Positions 12,392-24,872 of a DNA stretch of 64,000 nucleotides are shown one piece after another (position 1 is the stretch's first letter; every line of letters begins with the position of its first letter). The position numbers were made by a program, and so were the translations under genes. The notes below the pieces were generated by a model. The model searched no databases, had not been told where the DNA came from, and saw only the letters and a program-made list of their open reading frames with translations. The stretch is from Leptonemataceae bacterium (lineage in GTDB: Bacteria > Spirochaetota > Leptospiria > Leptospirales > Leptonemataceae). The stretch lies in the NCBI GenBank assembly GCA_965227295.1, contig OZ245742.1:3616001-3680000 (forward strand), written 5' to 3'.

Positions 12392-12982
12392 TTACGTCTC
12401 GACGGAATCGATGATGCCGTAGTCCAGGGCTTCCTGGGCGTTCAGGTAGTAGTCGCGATCGGTGTCCTGTTCGACCTGCTCCAGACTGCGTGACGTGGCT
12501 TCGGCGATGATGCGGTTCAACTCATCGCGGATTTTGCGGATCTCTTCCGCCTGGATCTTGATGTCTACCGCGGGGGCGATGATCTGCCCGGAGATCAACG
12601 GTTGGTGAATCATGATCCGCGCGTGGGCCCAGGCCTTGCGTTTGCCCTTCGCGCCGCCGACGAGGAGCAGGGCGCCCATGCTCGCGGCGAGACCCATGCA
12701 AACCGTGGAAACGTCCGAGCTGATCATCTGCATGGTGTCGTAGATGGCCATGCCCGAGGTGATGACGCCGCCGGGGCTGTTGATGTAGAAGGTGATGTCT
12801 TTGCCCGGATCCTGCGCTTCCAGATAGAGCAGGCGCTCGACGATGTAGCGAGCGGAGCGATCCTCAACGGCGCCCCAGAGATAGATCTTCCGCTGCTCAA
12901 GCAGGGTCTCTTCGATTTTTGATTGGATGGGATCGATGGCGGCCGCCGGCTGAGCGGCCTTGATTTCAGAGTACTGGTTCAT
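12392..12982 (-). CDS. clpP: ClpP protease proteolytic subunit with intact triad
   Basis: YINSPGG, AASMG (Ser), MIHQP (His), DTDRD (Asp). Confidence 0.96.
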   Translation of the reverse strand: MNQYSEIKAAQPAAAIDPIQSKIEETLLEQRKIYLWGAVEDRSARYIVERLLYLEAQDPGKDITFYINSPGGVITSGMAIYDTMQMISSDVSTVCMGLAASMGALLLVGGAKGKRKAWAHARIMIHQPLISGQIIAPAVDIKIQAEEIRKIRDELNRIIAEATSRSLEQVEQDTDRDYYLNAQEALDYGIIDSVET

Positions 12983-13051
12983 AGCTTTCCCGCTAAGAAA
13001 CCGACGATAGGCCTGTAAGTCAACTCAGGAATGCTCCGGAAGAACCGGGGG

Positions 13052-14820
<1,769 letters not shown>

Positions 14821-17217: not shown

Positions 17218-17289
17218 CGGGATGTAGCGCAGGGGTAGCGCATCTGCTTTGGGAGCAGAGGGTCGTTGGTTCGAATCCAATCATCCCGA
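17218..17289 (+). tRNA. tRNA-Pro(TGG)
   Basis: Acceptor CGGGATG/CATCCCG; anticodon stem TCTGC/GCAGA with loop TT-TGG-GA; GTTCGAATC. Confidence 0.95.
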
Positions 17290-17293
17290 CAGA

Positions 17294-17367
17294 GCGCCAG
17301 TAGCTCAGTTGGATAGAGCAGCTGCCTTCTAAGCAGCTGGTCGGGGGTTCGAATCCTCCCTGGCGCG
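17294..17367 (+). tRNA. tRNA-Arg(TCT)
   Basis: Acceptor GCGCCAG/CTGGCGC; GCTGC CT-TCT-AA GCAGC; GTTCGAATC. Confidence 0.96.
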
Positions 17368-17410
17368 CAGGCAGTCGCTTTGGGACTGCCGAACCAGAAC
17401 AGATAAACAC

Positions 17411-17483
17411 GGCGGGTGTAGCTCAGTGGTAGAGCGCCAGATTGTGGCTCTGGATGTCGGGGGTTCAATTCCCCTCACTCGCC
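17411..17483 (+). tRNA. tRNA-His(GTG)
   Basis: G-1 plus GCGGGTG/CACTCGC, C73; CCAGA TT-GTG-GC TCTGG. Confidence 0.96.
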
Positions 17484-17488
17484 CATCG

Positions 17489-17599
17489 TTTTTGCCCCTC
17501 CCTCCCGCGCAGCCCTGTGCGCGGCGCCCATCCATGGGCTTAGCGCCCAGGGGGGCGGACATCCTGTCCGCCAATCAGCGCAGAAGGGAGGGGCAAAAA
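17489..17599. repeat. Palindromic element: 15-bp terminal inverted repeat enclosing three hairpins
   Basis: TTTTTGCCCCTCCCT ... AGGGAGGGGCAAAAA; inner CGCGCA/TGCGCG, GCCCAT-C-CATGGGC, GGCGGACA-TCC-TGTCCGCC. Confidence 0.75.
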
Positions 17600-17633
17600 G
17601 CGAAGGCGTGGTTTCGTTCGGGACCGGCCTGGC

Positions 17634-18290
17634 TTATCTCGGCCCCGGGAAATAGAACGGCGATTCGAACGGATTGTACGAATACTCCTGATCCGTGTGG
17701 AACCGGAACTCCGGTACGCTCAGGTTTACGCCGGCCACGCTGATCCGCGGGCGCACCGATAGATTCTCCACGTCACCGATGGGAACTCCCAGGAGCCAGA
17801 TCTGGAACTCCGTGGCCGTCTCGATTTCTACATAGTCGGGCAACGATTCGAATTCGTTGACGCTGTAGTACTCCGCAATATCGACATGGCCCGTTCCGGC
17901 ATCGTAGTCATACTGTGTCAGACCGGTGGGAGACAGAGTCGTCGCCTCGTGGCGAAACTGGAAGCTGTCCTGCTCAATGCGCAACGGGGCGGCTCCCGGC
18001 GGGAATTCCAGGCGCCAATGCATGTATACATCCCGGCTCGCGACGAAGTTGTTGTCCGTTGGCCAGAGCGGCAGCAGGCACGGACCGATGAATGCCTTCT
18101 GCTGACCGGAAACGGCCCAATAGTGCAGCGTGATCGGACCGGCCGGGGAAGCCGCGACATAGCGGGCACACGGGACCTCGCAACCGCGGGAGTCGCGGTA
18201 TTGATACTCCGGCGCCAGGTAGTAGCGCGTGTCGATGGTCGAGCAGTGTACGATAAGCAGGGCAATCGGCAGTGTGACGATCCAACGCAT
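17634..18290 (-). CDS. Hypothetical lipoprotein
   Basis: MRWIVTLPIALLIVHC lipobox-like signal. Confidence 0.7.
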   Translation of the reverse strand: MRWIVTLPIALLIVHCSTIDTRYYLAPEYQYRDSRGCEVPCARYVAASPAGPITLHYWAVSGQQKAFIGPCLLPLWPTDNNFVASRDVYMHWRLEFPPGAAPLRIEQDSFQFRHEATTLSPTGLTQYDYDAGTGHVDIAEYYSVNEFESLPDYVEIETATEFQIWLLGVPIGDVENLSVRPRISVAGVNLSVPEFRFHTDQEYSYNPFESPFYFPGPR

Positions 18291-18389
18291 GGACGAATTT
18301 TACTTTACCGGGGCGGGGCCGGGAATTCCTTTTCTGTTTGACTACCGGATGGGGCTGAAAAACCTTGCTGTCTCTATCCGGTTCGTCAC

Positions 18390-18471
<82 letters not shown>

Positions 18472-18475
18472 CAAC

Positions 18476-18547
<72 letters not shown>

Positions 18548-18578
18548 CAGTAATCTCGTATCAAGAGAGAACGTTCCG

Positions 18579-18603: not shown

Positions 18604-18643
18604 ATATCCTGCTGCTCTAAGACTCTGCCTGCGAATTGTGACC

Positions 18644-19972
18644 ATGGAATTTAAAATCAAGAAACTATCTGAAGTGACCGCCGAGGTTACGCTGAAGACC
18701 ACTGCCGAAGAGGTGGACGAGGCGTATCGCGCCGCGTACAAAAAAGCCCAGACGAAGATTAAGCTCCCCGGCTTCCGCAAGGGTCGCGTGCCCCTGGAAA
18801 TGGTTGAGAAACACCTGGGCGAGAGCGTGGCCGAGGACGCCGCCCGGGAACTCATCGCCGCGACTTTTGAGGATGTGGTCGAGGATCTGGATCCGGCACC
18901 CATCAGCCTGCCGCGCTTTGAGATCGAGTCTTTTGAGCGGGGCAAGGGTGCCGTCTTCAAGGGTACTTACGACACCATGCCGAAGGTCAAGCTCGGTAAG
19001 TACAAAAAACTGAAAGTTAGTGAAGATAAGGCGAAGATCGACGACGCCGTTCTGAAAGAAGAGCTGGAACGCCTGCGCAAAGAAAACGCCACCCTGCAAA
19101 CCAGGGAAGGCGGCGCGCAGAAAGACGACTACGCCACCGCCGAGATCGTGGTCCGGGACTCGGACGGTAAAGAAATGTTCTCGAACAAGGAGTTCCGCTT
19201 CCAGATCGGCGCCGGCCAGAGCCTGCCCGGTTTCGACGATCAGGTGGAAGGCATGGAGGTCGAGCAGGAGAAATCGTTCGAGCTGAACATCGACGAGACC
19301 TTCCCCGACGCCCAGTTCGCCGGGAAGACCGTCCAATGTATCGTGAAGCTCACCGACTGTCGCTTCGCCGACATGCCGGAACTCAACGACGAGTTTGCGA
19401 AAGACATGGGCGAGTACGATACGCTGGCTGATCTTGAGAAGGAACTCCGGGAGAAACTGGAAGAACAGGCCAAAACCGCGCTCAAACAAAAGGCAATGAA
19501 CGAACTGGTCCGCCAGGCCGTCGAAGGCGCGAAGGTTTCCGTGCCCGATTCCGTCGTGGAGAACGAGATGGGACAGCGCTTCGAGCATATCAAGCAGCGA
19601 ATCGGCCAGAAGGATCTGGACCTGGACGGTCTGGCGAAGGCCACCGGTCAGAGCCGGGAGGATCTGGAAAAGGAACTCCGGGAATCCGCGCAGCGCGGCG
19701 TCGAGGAGCGCCTGGTGCTCCGGGAAATCCTCGAAACCGAGGCCATCGAGGTCGCGGACGACGAGATCGAGCAGGAGATCCGCACCATGTACGGACAATT
19801 CCTGCAGGGCCCGCAGCTGGACCAATTCGTGGGCAATGAAAAGGTCCGGGACGACGTTCGGGGCCGGCTACTCTACGTCAAATGCCTGGAGTGGCTCTAC
19901 GACAACGCCGAGGTAAAAACCGGAAATGAGATTTCTTATAAGCAGCTCAAAGAAGAGGGCGCCCTTTCCTGA
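18644..19972 (+). CDS. tig: Trigger factor
   Basis: PGFRKGRVP signature; FKBP-like LPGFDDQVEGM; precedes clpP-clpX. Confidence 0.95.
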   Translation: MEFKIKKLSEVTAEVTLKTTAEEVDEAYRAAYKKAQTKIKLPGFRKGRVPLEMVEKHLGESVAEDAARELIAATFEDVVEDLDPAPISLPRFEIESFERGKGAVFKGTYDTMPKVKLGKYKKLKVSEDKAKIDDAVLKEELERLRKENATLQTREGGAQKDDYATAEIVVRDSDGKEMFSNKEFRFQIGAGQSLPGFDDQVEGMEVEQEKSFELNIDETFPDAQFAGKTVQCIVKLTDCRFADMPELNDEFAKDMGEYDTLADLEKELREKLEEQAKTALKQKAMNELVRQAVEGAKVSVPDSVVENEMGQRFEHIKQRIGQKDLDLDGLAKATGQSREDLEKELRESAQRGVEERLVLREILETEAIEVADDEIEQEIRTMYGQFLQGPQLDQFVGNEKVRDDVRGRLLYVKCLEWLYDNAEVKTGNEISYKQLKEEGALS

Positions 19973-20056: not shown

Positions 20057-20647
20057 ATGGCGATCGTACCCACAATCTGGGAACAAACCGGCCGCGGCGA
20101 ACGCGGTTACGACATCTACTCCCGACTCTTAAAAGATCGGGTCATCTTTCTTGGTTATCCCATCGACGACACCTACGCGAACCTCATCATCGCGCAGATG
20201 CTCTTCCTCGATGCGGACGATCCGGAAAAGGATATCTATCTCTACATCAACTCTCCGGGCGGATATGTCAGCGACGGCCTGGCGATCTACGACACCATGC
20301 AGTACGTACGGGCCGACATTCGGACCGTCTGCATCGGCCAGGCGGCCAACATCTCCTCGTTGCTCCTGGCGGCCGGCGCACCGGGCAAACGTTCCGCGTT
20401 ACCCAACGCCCGTATCATGATGCACCAGCCCATCGGCGGCGTCCAGGGTCAGTCCCGGGACATTGAGATCCAGGCGAAGGAGATCCTGCACATCAAAGAG
20501 AAGCTCAACAGCATCTACGCGAAGCACACCGGGCGACCGCTGGAGCAGATCGAGAAGGATGTGGATCGGTTCTTTTACATTTCGTCGGATGACGCCAAAG
20601 AGTACGGACTCATCGATACGGTCATCGAGAGCGAAAAAGAGCGCTGA
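20057..20647 (+). CDS. clpP: ClpP paralogue lacking catalytic Ser and Asp (ClpR-like)
   Basis: [27 protein letters not shown] present; AANIS replaces AASMG and DVDRF replaces DTDRD. Confidence 0.93.
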
Positions 20648-20751: not shown

Positions 20752-22053
20752 ATGGCAGTACGGAAGAAAAGCGGAGATCGAGAGAAGCTGCACTGTAGCT
20801 TTTGCGGCAAGGAACAGGACTCCGTGCGCCGCCTTGTGGCGGGGCCGGGGGTCTACATTTGCGACGAGTGCATCGAGCTCTGCAACGAGATCATCGCCGA
20901 AGAGGGCGATCAGGAGGGCGGCGGCGTCCTCCAGGGTGAGTTGCCGCGCCCGGCGGAAATTCGCGACATCCTCGACCAGTACGTCATCGGGCAGGAGCGA
21001 GCCAAGAAGGCCCTGGCGGTAGCCGTCTATAATCACTACAAGCGCATCAATCAGAACCAGAAGAAAGGTGAGGTCGAGCTGGACAAGTCCAACATCCTGC
21101 TCATCGGGCCCACGGGTTCCGGCAAGACTCTGCTCGCGCAAACCCTGGCGCGGCTCCTCAAAGTGCCGTTCGCCATCGTGGACGCCACGGCATTGACCGA
21201 GGCCGGCTATGTCGGCGAGGATGTGGAGAACATTCTCCTGCGTCTCATCCAGAACGCGGACAACGACATCAAGCGCGCCGAGATCGGCATCATTTACATC
21301 GACGAGATCGACAAGATCTCGCGCAAGACGGACAACCCCTCCATCACCCGGGACGTCTCCGGTGAGGGCGTGCAGCAGGCCCTGCTCAAGATCATCGAAG
21401 GAACCGTCGCCAACGTTCCGCCCCAGGGCGGCCGCAAGCATCCGCATCAGGACTTTCTGTCGCTCGATACGCGCAACATCCTGTTCATTTGCGGCGGTGC
21501 CTTTGTGGGGCTGGACAAGATCATCGAGCATCGCCTCGGTCGTCGGGAGATCGGCTTCGGTCGCAAACCGGACCATGCGCCCATGGGAAAACAGGATCGT
21601 GCGCGTCGCCGGGAGATGCTGGCTCAGGTCATTCCGGACGACCTCATGAAGTACGGCCTCATTCCGGAATTCGTCGGCCGTCTGCCCATGGTGGCAAGCC
21701 TCGACGACCTGGACATCGAAACGCTGAAGCAGATTTTTACCGAACCGAAGAACTCACTGCTGCGCCAGTATCAGCGCATCTTCGAACTGGAAGAGGTGAA
21801 GCTTAAGTTCACCGACGAAGCCATTACGAAAATCGCCGAGCTGGCCATGCAACGCGAGGCCGGCGCCCGCGGTCTGCGCAGTATCGTCGAGAACGTCATG
21901 ATGGAACTCATGTACTCGATTCCGTCCCGGGACGACGTCGAAGAAGTGGTCATCACTCCTGCTGTCATTGAGAAGCAGGATCAGCCCGTCTTCGTCATGA
22001 AGAAAGAGGGCGGTCGTTCTTCGTCGAAAGACAAGAAAGAAAAGCTGGCCTGA
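20752..22053 (+). CDS. clpX: ATP-dependent Clp protease ATP-binding subunit
   Basis: CSFC zinc finger, [21 protein letters not shown] loop. Confidence 0.98.
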
Positions 22054-23531: not shown

Positions 23532-23698
23532 GAGACTGTTCCTGCGCCGAACCGATAATGATAGTAGTGCGGCTGGGCGCCCGGCCGTCGCCGGTTCTAC
23601 GGGCAGGAAACTGAGGTCCGGGAGATTCGGCCAGCAAAATGATTTAGAGTTGTCACGCTTTTTTGAGGCTGATACACTCTCGCAGGCGAGGTAATTCC

Positions 23699-24511
23699 GT
23701 GGCGGTCAGCAAGGAACAGAAGCATCTCTACAATGAAAAGGTCCGGCCGTACAAGAGCACGGCGGAAGACCTCAAAAAAGAAATCTCCACCGTGAAGGGG
23801 GCCGGGCGGCGGAACGCGAAGCTGGACCCTTACTTTCAGGTGAAGTCCGCGGTCCTGGGGGCCCAACGGGCCAACACCCTGGTGCAGATGTCCCGCCTGT
23901 CGCAGCAGATCCAGAACATCAAGAACGACAGTTACCTCAACGACGCTCGCAAAGAAATTTCCAGCCGACTTTCCGACCTCCTGAAGATCGTGGGCGAGAA
24001 CCTTGACGGCGGACTCACCGACAACGTCGACGAACTGGCAAAGATCTCACAGCTTACGCCGCTCCAGAAGTTCCATCTGCTTCAGGGACTCAAGGACGCC
24101 ATCGAGAACGTTCGCGCGGCCATGGGGGAGACCTCCAAGTGGCGCTGGTACTATCCGGACATGTATCTCAAGCTCGTGACCCTGGCCCGCAACCTCATGG
24201 ACTTCAAGCAGTTCGAGCGCACGAAGGATCCGAACGACGACAACTACCGGCCGCTTCAGGAGTACATGCGGTTTATGATGGAAGAGTCCCAGAATGCCGC
24301 TCAGGAATACCGCTCCAAGTACGAGCTGAGTACGAACGAGGTCGGCGACCTCCAGGTAATCCAGCGGATTTTCGAGATGCAGAAACGGGTCTACACGTTC
24401 ACCGGGCAGAAGGAGGAACTGAAAAAGGCCTCGATCTCCCTGGATAGCATCAAGGAAAAAATCGAAGCCCAGATGTCCGAAAAGAAGGGCGCCAAAAAGA
24501 AGAAAGGTTGA
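23699..24511 (+). CDS. Hypothetical helical protein
   Basis: GTG start after GAGGT; long ORF with host codon usage; no motif recognised. Confidence 0.75.
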   Translation: MAVSKEQKHLYNEKVRPYKSTAEDLKKEISTVKGAGRRNAKLDPYFQVKSAVLGAQRANTLVQMSRLSQQIQNIKNDSYLNDARKEISSRLSDLLKIVGENLDGGLTDNVDELAKISQLTPLQKFHLLQGLKDAIENVRAAMGETSKWRWYYPDMYLKLVTLARNLMDFKQFERTKDPNDDNYRPLQEYMRFMMEESQNAAQEYRSKYELSTNEVGDLQVIQRIFEMQKRVYTFTGQKEELKKASISLDSIKEKIEAQMSEKKGAKKKKG

Positions 24512-24557
24512 CGCTCCGGCCTTTCCTGGTTTGCTTATCGGGAAGGAGTGCCGAATT

Positions 24558-24872
24558 ATGTCCGTAAAAACCCTTACCGATGCCACCTACGATCAGGATA
24601 CCGCCAGCGGTACGGTGCTCGTCGATTTCTGGGCGGAGTGGTGCGGCCCGTGCAAGATGATCGCTCCCATTGTAGAAGAGCTTTCCGGTGAGATGGGCGA
24701 CGTCACCTTTGCCAAGCTGAACGTGGACGAAAACCAGCAGGTCGCTCAGAAGCTCGGCATCACGTCGATCCCCACGCTCATCCTGTACAAAGACGGCCAG
24801 CAGGTAGACAAGGTCGTCGGTCTCATGCCGAAGCCCCAGCTCAAGAGCTTCATCGAGAAACACAACGGCTGA
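24558..24872 (+). CDS. trxA: Thioredoxin
   Basis: DFWAEWCGPCK, SIPTL; AAGGAG RBS. Confidence 0.96.
   Translation: MSVKTLTDATYDQDTASGTVLVDFWAEWCGPCKMIAPIVEELSGEMGDVTFAKLNVDENQQVAQKLGITSIPTLILYKDGQQVDKVVGLMPKPQLKSFIEKHNG

Follow-up and report, generated by a model that had tools for sequence, protein, structure and literature searches.

A clpX-linked ClpP without catalytic serine and aspartate in a leptospiral bacterium, a candidate ClpX-docking ring on an intact ClpP2

Dead ClpP paralogues are usually known as accessory copies, but in the 64,000-nucleotide stretch of DNA analysed here (the window) the dead copy was the housekeeping gene of the tig-clpP-clpX locus. The gene, clpP1, sat between tig and clpX (Table 1), and its open reading frame was full length with a GGAGG ribosome site upstream. 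A sequence-only reading of the window had proposed that this protein exchanged Ser98 for Asn and Asp172 for Phe and retained His123. The codons AAC, CAC and TTC at positions 98, 123 and 172 bore this out, and HMMER alignments to solved ClpPs placed Asn98 and Phe172 in the columns of the catalytic serine and aspartate, leaving Asn98/His123/Phe172 in place of the Ser-His-Asp triad of an active peptidase. The match to the profile PRK00277 was above the cut-off of 249, and the score against TIGR00493 was 306, slightly below the cut-off of 308.6. The protein shared 56-64% identity with ordinary solved ClpPs without any insertion, and its predicted structure (pLDDT 79) was a ClpP fold with a TM of about 0.9 (0.91) and an rmsd of 1.6-1.7 Å to solved ClpPs. 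Its nearest rows in a tree built without ClpR sequences were triad-intact leptospiral ClpP1s (identity 65-76%), which upheld the earlier proposal of an origin independent of ClpR, and its score against PRK12552, which we take to be a ClpR-like model, was 203.6 (cut-off 263). By its fold, ClpP1 belongs to the ClpP family; by descent, it is not a ClpR. A protein with neither nucleophile nor charge relay has no serine-peptidase chemistry. Because this chemistry needs the residues that were lost, ClpP1 is, as judged from its residues, near certain to be catalytically inactive. Two further residues, Tyr70 (20264-20266) and Tyr154 (20516-20518), were near-invariant in ClpP1 throughout the class and occurred in 3 and 10 of 74 controls, respectively; in the ClpP structure, both presumably lie near the substrate cleft and may narrow it.

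Table 1. Positions in the window of the clpX-linked clpP1, its catalytic and docking residues, its neighbours and the intact paralogue
Feature	Position	Strand	Details
clpP1, pseudo-peptidase ClpP subunit, 196 aa	20057..20647	+	Asn98, His123, Phe172; PRK00277 316.6 bits
codons 98-99: Asn replacing catalytic Ser (20348-50), Ile replacing next Met	20348..20353	+	codon reading
His123, kept	20423..20425	+	codon reading; His in 38/40 family orthologues
Asp170-Arg171 (ring-ring sensor, kept) and Phe172 replacing catalytic Asp (20570-72)	20564..20572	+	
Tyr61, Tyr63, Tyr83: retained aromatics of the pocket predicted to dock the Clp ATPase	20237..20305	+	
tig (trigger factor)	18638..19972	+	TIGR00115 319.9 bits
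clpX, single genomic copy	20752..22053	+	intact IGF docking loop at residues 267-269 (21550-21558)
clpP2, triad-intact paralogue, predicted catalytic partner	12392..12982	-	Ser101, His126, Asp177

The surroundings of the two clpP genes were also inspected. The clpP blocks were separated by tRNA genes for Pro, Arg, His, Leu and Gly, five in all (17218-18548, +), and a 218-aa minus-strand ORF (17634-18290) was located between tRNA-His and tRNA-Leu. The clpP2 gene was the last of a minus-strand run (12392-14799) of eno, a 149-aa ORF (13052-13501) and clpP2, divergent from tig-clpP1-clpX. The 149-aa ORF had no NCBIfam match, and after eno it presumably occupies an ftsB-like position. Beyond clpX, a helical-looking 282-aa ORF (23663-24511, +) without an NCBIfam match lay upstream of a thioredoxin-like ORF (24531-24872) with a WCGPC motif. 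No sigma-70 promoter match was found between 18300 and 22300, which is uninformative.

To place the residue changes, ClpP1 was compared across the family of this genome (f1, by its relatives probably a Leptospirales family), a Leptospira-like family (f2, which would hold Leptospira itself, judging by the Ser98 that it shares with L. interrogans ClpP1) and the sister families f3 to f9. ClpP1 was found in 40 of the 42 f1 genomes searched, the two others being 67% and 81% complete, and clpX adjoined 89 of 90 ClpP1 genes. The triad was broken in 36 of the 40 f1 proteins, with Ser98 missing in 24, and was intact in four. The states were N-H-V (11), N-H-L (8), S-H-V (6), S-H-I (4) and S-H-D (4), together with one each of N-H-F, N-H-M, N-H-I, H-H-V, S-N-I, S-Y-F and a truncated H-H. 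The closest named records were Leptospirales bacterium L037 (74%, S-H-V) and Leptospiraceae bacterium L038 (73%, N-H-L). Among the 119 best database homologues, 18 were S-H-D and 101 degenerate; residue 98 was Ser in 57, Asn in 54, His in 6 and Gln in 2, and Met99 tracked the triad, being present in 17 of the 18 intact versus 4 of the 101 degenerate proteins. All 31 f2 proteins fetched (from 113 matches) had Ser98, with Asn (18), Asp (12) or Tyr (1) at residue 172, and the 19 of 32 fetched from the sister families comprised 13 N-H-D (f3, f4, f5 and f9) and 6 S-H-D (f7 and f8). Outside the class, S-H-D was found in 39 of the 40 best ClpP matches (about one per family; 40 of 104 matching genomes). 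The change in ClpP1 is not a matter of chance, because 71 of 74 control ClpP loci outside the order were S-H-D, the other three S-H-N, and Ser98 was missing in none. A degenerate ClpP1 is the majority state in the family and recurs in the sister families. In another class of spirochaetes, the best ClpP match of one genome (L292, G220) carried Asp98/Lys123/Asp172 and is a separate dead ClpP.

A sequencing error or a decaying pseudogene would be an alternative, and the genome is a single contig; that explanation is already refuted. The contigs of two public runs were identical letter for letter (both runs belong to one study and one may be the source), two congeneric genomes carried Asn98 and Leu172, the same changes occurred family-wide, and no stop or frameshift was found inside the ClpP1 match in 40 family genomes. 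All estimates of dN/dS for ClpP1 were about 0.02-0.09, far below 1. The NG86 values for this genome against each congener were 0.09 for ClpP1 and 0.11 for ClpP2, and those of the 39 within-genus pairs whose dS was not saturated, 11 in number, gave medians of 0.025 and 0.033. The codon-model omegas, which are rough because the deep branches are saturated, were 0.023 for 32 degenerate f1 ClpP1s versus 0.034 for the ClpP2s that accompany them, 0.024 versus 0.030 in 20 Ser-less genomes, 0.023 versus 0.038 in 11 Asn98 sister-family genomes, and 0.018 for 12 intact f2 ClpP1s. The excess of variability over the controls was largest at site 172 and second largest at site 98, while 25 of 28 control-invariant sites were still near-invariant in ClpP1. 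The low dN/dS, with 172 and 98 as the most relaxed sites, indicates neither decay nor error: the protein was preserved and the chemistry alone was dropped. The proposal of the sequence-only reading, a conserved pseudo-peptidase, is supported, since the gene is kept by selection and relaxation was confined to the catalytic sites; checks of the reads, of relaxed selection and of a conserved replacement at Ser100 did not refute it. The present results extend it in two respects, since the change is family- and class-wide and a third intact ClpP is present in the genome.

The history of the losses was analysed on a tree of ClpP1 (sites 97-99, 123 and 172 excluded), ClpP2, tig and ClpX. The f1 family formed one clade, within which site 172 needs one change and site 98 at least four; the Ser98 changes in the family were nearly always to Asn. 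A single loss of Ser98 was rejected (one clade of all Ser98-less rows, p-AU 5e-60), and a grouping of the 36 degenerate rows into a single clade was not (p-AU 0.47). The four intact family members were nested in the tree, which suggests that they regained the triad, but no such regain is needed because that single clade was not rejected. In the simplest reading, Asp172, together with Met99, was likely lost early and possibly once, after which Ser98 changed repeatedly; a tree rooted on the ClpPs of other spirochaetes was unreliable, and the direction of individual changes is not proven. By the same simplest reading, the sister families underwent separate Ser-to-Asn changes with Asp172 kept, and f2 an Asp-to-Asn change. 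The codon of Ser98 was AGY in 16 of 16 f1 and 6 of 6 f7/f8 copies, and TCN in 31 of 31 f2 copies. Codon contingency, with AGY serines lost and TCN serines kept, fitted within the class and was rejected as the cause: in 47 of 74 ordinary ClpPs, too, the Ser98 codon is of the AG type, so that the codon type explains access to the change and not its cause.

Some catalysis could persist in ClpP1 if the nucleophile had shifted to Ser100 or Ser101 and acted with His123. All 40 family ClpP1s had Ser101, as did 60 of 62 Ser98-less homologues, His123 was kept in 115 of 119 database homologues, and a Ser-His-Pro ClpP with low residual activity has been reported (PMC12900304). However, Ser101 was common to the intact members, occurred in 13 of 74 ordinary ClpPs and was missing in 12 of 13 Asn98 sister-family proteins; Ser100 was found in just 34 of the 62, residues 99-104 were helical in the model, and His123 was itself lost in 4 of 119. 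A shifted nucleophile is therefore very unlikely. The 62 Ser98-less homologues carried Asn (54), His (6) or Gln (2), with Gly, Ala, Thr and Cys in none; Gly is also one transition from an AGY codon, yet it never appeared, and the change to Asn recurred in separate clades. Occupied active sites have been reported to raise the affinity for ClpX in Listeria and E. coli (PMC5361862). Our tentative suggestion, held at well under even odds, is that Asn98 was selected and not simply tolerated. Together with Ile99 and the hydrophobic side chain at 172, it may fill the site like a bound substrate or inhibitor and lock an extended ring of high ClpX affinity, making ClpP1 a built-in allosteric activator of ClpP2. 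If so, the class would be a living graded series (S-H-D, S-H-N, S-H-V/I, N-H-D, N-H-V/L/F) for the origin of ClpR-type pseudoenzymes.

The paralogue at 12392-12982, which lies on the minus strand, retained all three catalytic residues, a retention that had been read from the sequence, and a third ClpP with an intact triad was found elsewhere in the genome (L003:1423-2001). An apparent break of the third gene by an internal TGA was rejected, as this TGA is the gene's own stop codon. The third gene was directly downstream of an ECF sigma-factor gene (L003:689-2001; G000:C1 ~5337080-5338393), and extra paralogues resembling it were seen in about 15 family genomes; it may form an alternative catalytic ring induced by stress. 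Each of the 85 complete paralogues that were fetched was triad-intact (53 of 53 in f1, 8 of 8 in f2 and 24 of 24 in the sister families). One further copy was cut by a contig end, and the count leaves out three f1 matches that were weak or partial, the G156 match that was split and an extra G189 copy. The split match, in an Asn98 genome (G156:C124:856-1382), was a ClpP2 match in two pieces. An intact paralogue accompanied the degenerate ClpP1 in 35 of 36 f1 genomes, the exception being a 54%-complete genome.

The docking features of the two subunits were then compared. The docking-pocket residues Tyr60, Tyr62 and Phe82 of E. coli ClpP, named in PMC13689560 (the pocket is also treated in PMC9765437), correspond to Tyr61, Tyr63 and Tyr83 of ClpP1 by the offset of the HMMER alignment. 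In the f1 ClpP1s these aromatics were kept in 38, 40 and 39 of 40, respectively, Arg23, Asp27, Leu49, Phe50 and Leu115 in 40 of 40 each, and the canonical N-terminal gate motif P5/R13/D19 in 40 of 40. The ring-ring sensor D170/R171 was present in 39 of 39 full-length family ClpP1s, and the Gly-rich handle was conserved as G127 (40/40), G128 (39/40) and G131 (40/40). The ClpP1 of this genome had the complete pocket and N-terminal gate, Ile190 included, by sequence only. In the f1 ClpP2s, position 61 was mostly Thr (Tyr in 5 of 38), position 63 was Tyr/Phe in 38 of 38, and position 83 was Met/Leu (aromatic in 0 of 38); Arg23 was present in 8 of 38, Leu115 was changed to Trp/Phe in 36 of 38, and the N-terminus was unrelated to the canonical motif. 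The ClpP2 of this genome likewise lacked the canonical gate and had Thr/Tyr/Met at the three pocket positions. Docking features are split between the subunits, kept in ClpP1 and largely lost in ClpP2, and the suggestion of the sequence-only reading that the dead ring docks ClpX is in line with these residues. The asymmetry is weaker in the sister families because their ClpP2 keeps two pocket aromatics (Tyr in 17 of 23 and Phe in 23 of 23). The IGF loop of ClpX was invariant in 34 of 34 aligned loops. The ClpX proteins of L013, L018, L118, L128 and L133 (genera g16 and g19) had extensions of about 25-45 residues directly after this loop.

Bacteria with two ClpPs assemble them into P1P2 barrels, in which a single face carries the ATPase. 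Our preferred explanation, to which we assign a probability of roughly 0.65, is that ClpP1 is a non-catalytic, ClpX-docking heptameric ring on an intact ClpP2 ring that does the cutting. A ClpP1 heptamer would stack on a ClpP2 heptamer and ClpX would dock on the ClpP1 face; the substrate would then pass the pore of the dead ring and reach a chamber whose active sites number 7 and not 14. ClpP1 would thereby gate entry, and may also hold ClpP2 in its active shape, while ClpP2 would do all the cutting. Within the data, the four family genomes with an intact ClpP1 triad and the mostly kept His123 are points against this explanation.

A doubtful alternative is that the dead ClpP1 pairs with ClpP2 as an activating structural ring only, with the ATPases on ClpP2 or on both faces. 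It agrees with the Tyr/Phe retained at the Tyr63 position of every family ClpP2, with a homology model placing the pocket in L. interrogans ClpP2 (bioRxiv 10.1101/2020.08.05.237438), with an ELISA in which ClpA and ClpC were reported to bind both L. interrogans isoforms alike, and with the weak-triad subunits of Listeria and Pseudomonas plecoglossicida, which are reported not to dock. However, that pocket model was reportedly built on the M. tuberculosis barrel, family ClpP2 is without the gate motif, Arg23/Asp27 and two of the three pocket aromatics and carries the Trp/Phe replacement of Leu115, and ClpP1 retains all the docking features that are eroded in ClpP2. Less probable again is a true ClpR-type architecture, in which every ring combines dead and active subunits or ClpP1 pairs with the third paralogue in place of ClpP2. 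Synechococcus ClpP3/ClpR is reported to form mixed 3:4 rings (PMC13689560), and a third intact ClpP is at hand in this genome; against this, the L. interrogans complex is described as two stacked homoheptamers, ClpP2 was present in nearly all genomes and third copies in some only, and clpP1 and clpP2 were within 15 kb of each other in 14 of the 19 f1 genomes that carried the two genes on the same contig (divergently in 13 of these 14). Most improbable of these arrangements is ClpP1 acting alone as a non-proteolytic cap that damps ClpX or makes it an unfoldase, with ClpP2 or ClpP3 forming separate proteases. The fully conserved docking surface and ring-ring sensor would suit such a cap, and pure L. 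interrogans ClpP1 is reported to self-assemble, but pure L. interrogans ClpP2 is reported to be inactive and the ClpP2 here is without most docking features, so that a cap would leave ClpX without a protease.

Most of one family and several of its sister families carry a dead housekeeping ClpP, all the intermediate states survive in living members, and parallel Ser-to-Asn changes in a housekeeping ClpP make the origin of a pseudoenzyme testable. These graded natural variants make two questions testable, namely why ClpR-type subunits are kept and why, in Clp proteases of two subunits, the ring that docks the ATPase tends to give up catalysis; the latter loss has so far been shown with engineered mutants only. 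The results also challenge current views of the Clp protease of Leptospira, which has been proposed as a drug target: class-wide conservation points to ClpP2 as the subunit that always retains its active site and to ClpP1 as the probable docking face, opposite to what has been published. A search of the full-text literature found no description of a Ser98 loss in Leptospirales; subscription journals were outside its scope, and Dhara 2019 and Kumari 2024 may discuss Asn172 or pocket mutants of the L. interrogans proteins. The accessible part of PMC8182300 adds nothing on dead or partial-triad ClpPs, and the accessible part of the supplements to PMC9067928 makes no mention of Leptonema or Turneriella.

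The nearest known system is that of L. interrogans, also with two isoforms, ClpP1 (LIC11417) and ClpP2 (LIC11951), to which the present pair is probably orthologous: clpP1 adjoins clpX (LIC11418) there, Ser is found at the same position 98, and the f2 orthologues were 65-67% identical to this ClpP1. Both isoforms are reported to be inactive singly and active as a heterocomplex (bioRxiv 10.1101/2020.08.05.237438; PMC12493166), and one ClpP allele is reported to be without a triad residue (PMC9067928). Unlike the ClpP1 here, with both Ser98 and Asp172 lost, the Leptospira-like ClpP1s sampled kept Ser98 in 31 of 31 and had Asn172 in 18, and the ClpP1 serine of L. interrogans matters in vitro: S98A in ClpP1 was reported to leave the heterocomplex inactive, with rescue by ADEP seen for the ClpP2 mutant alone (bioRxiv 10.1101/2020.08.05.237438). 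ClpP1 therefore looks the more important catalyst in that species, since S98A kills the complex without rescue by ADEP. This counts against the preferred explanation, as do the reported binding and modelling data, which partly oppose ATPase docking on one face only.

In the ClpP1P2 systems of M. tuberculosis and Streptomyces, one ring docks the ATPase and the other cuts, as predicted here. M. tuberculosis ClpP2 is reported to be a chaperone scaffold with a dispensable catalytic serine (PMC9067928), and Streptomyces ClpP2 an ATPase-docking subunit whose serine is likewise dispensable (PMC9765437). The scaffold subunits of those systems retain Ser-His-Asp, and dispensability was learned from mutants, whereas here the residues were lost by evolution, in most of a family, in the tig-clpP-clpX gene; by analogy, the dead ring is best read as the natural end point of the asymmetry seen with the Mycobacterium and Streptomyces mutants. 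Some Streptomyces proteins of the ClpP2 clade are reported to be without the triad, and dead ClpPs are reported in Actinoplanes too (PMC13689560). In Chlamydia, the subunit of the clpX operon is reported to dock ClpX and the N-terminally truncated subunit not to (PMC6773864). The two paralogues here, whose docking features are split as judged from the protein sequences, may form an asymmetric barrel of the Mycobacterium, Streptomyces and Chlamydia type, although the L. interrogans data speak in part against this.

ClpR, described as a ClpP homologue without a catalytic triad in cyanobacteria, plastids and apicoplasts (PMC7966870), resembles this ClpP1 in that the latter is conserved without a working triad (two of three residues lost, the nucleophile included) and is predicted to depend on an active paralogue. 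It differs from this ClpP1, which has a separate origin, keeps His123, has no insertion, is encoded in the clpX operon and is predicted to form a homomeric ring in place of mixed ClpP3/R rings. The third triad residue is also replaced in Listeria monocytogenes ClpP1 (Asn172; PMC5361862) and in P. plecoglossicida ClpP1 (Ser-His-Pro; PMC12900304), and both proteins are reported to work in heterocomplexes. Those two subunits keep the serine, and ClpX is reported to bind the other, fully active subunit, which is the mirror image of the arrangement predicted here.
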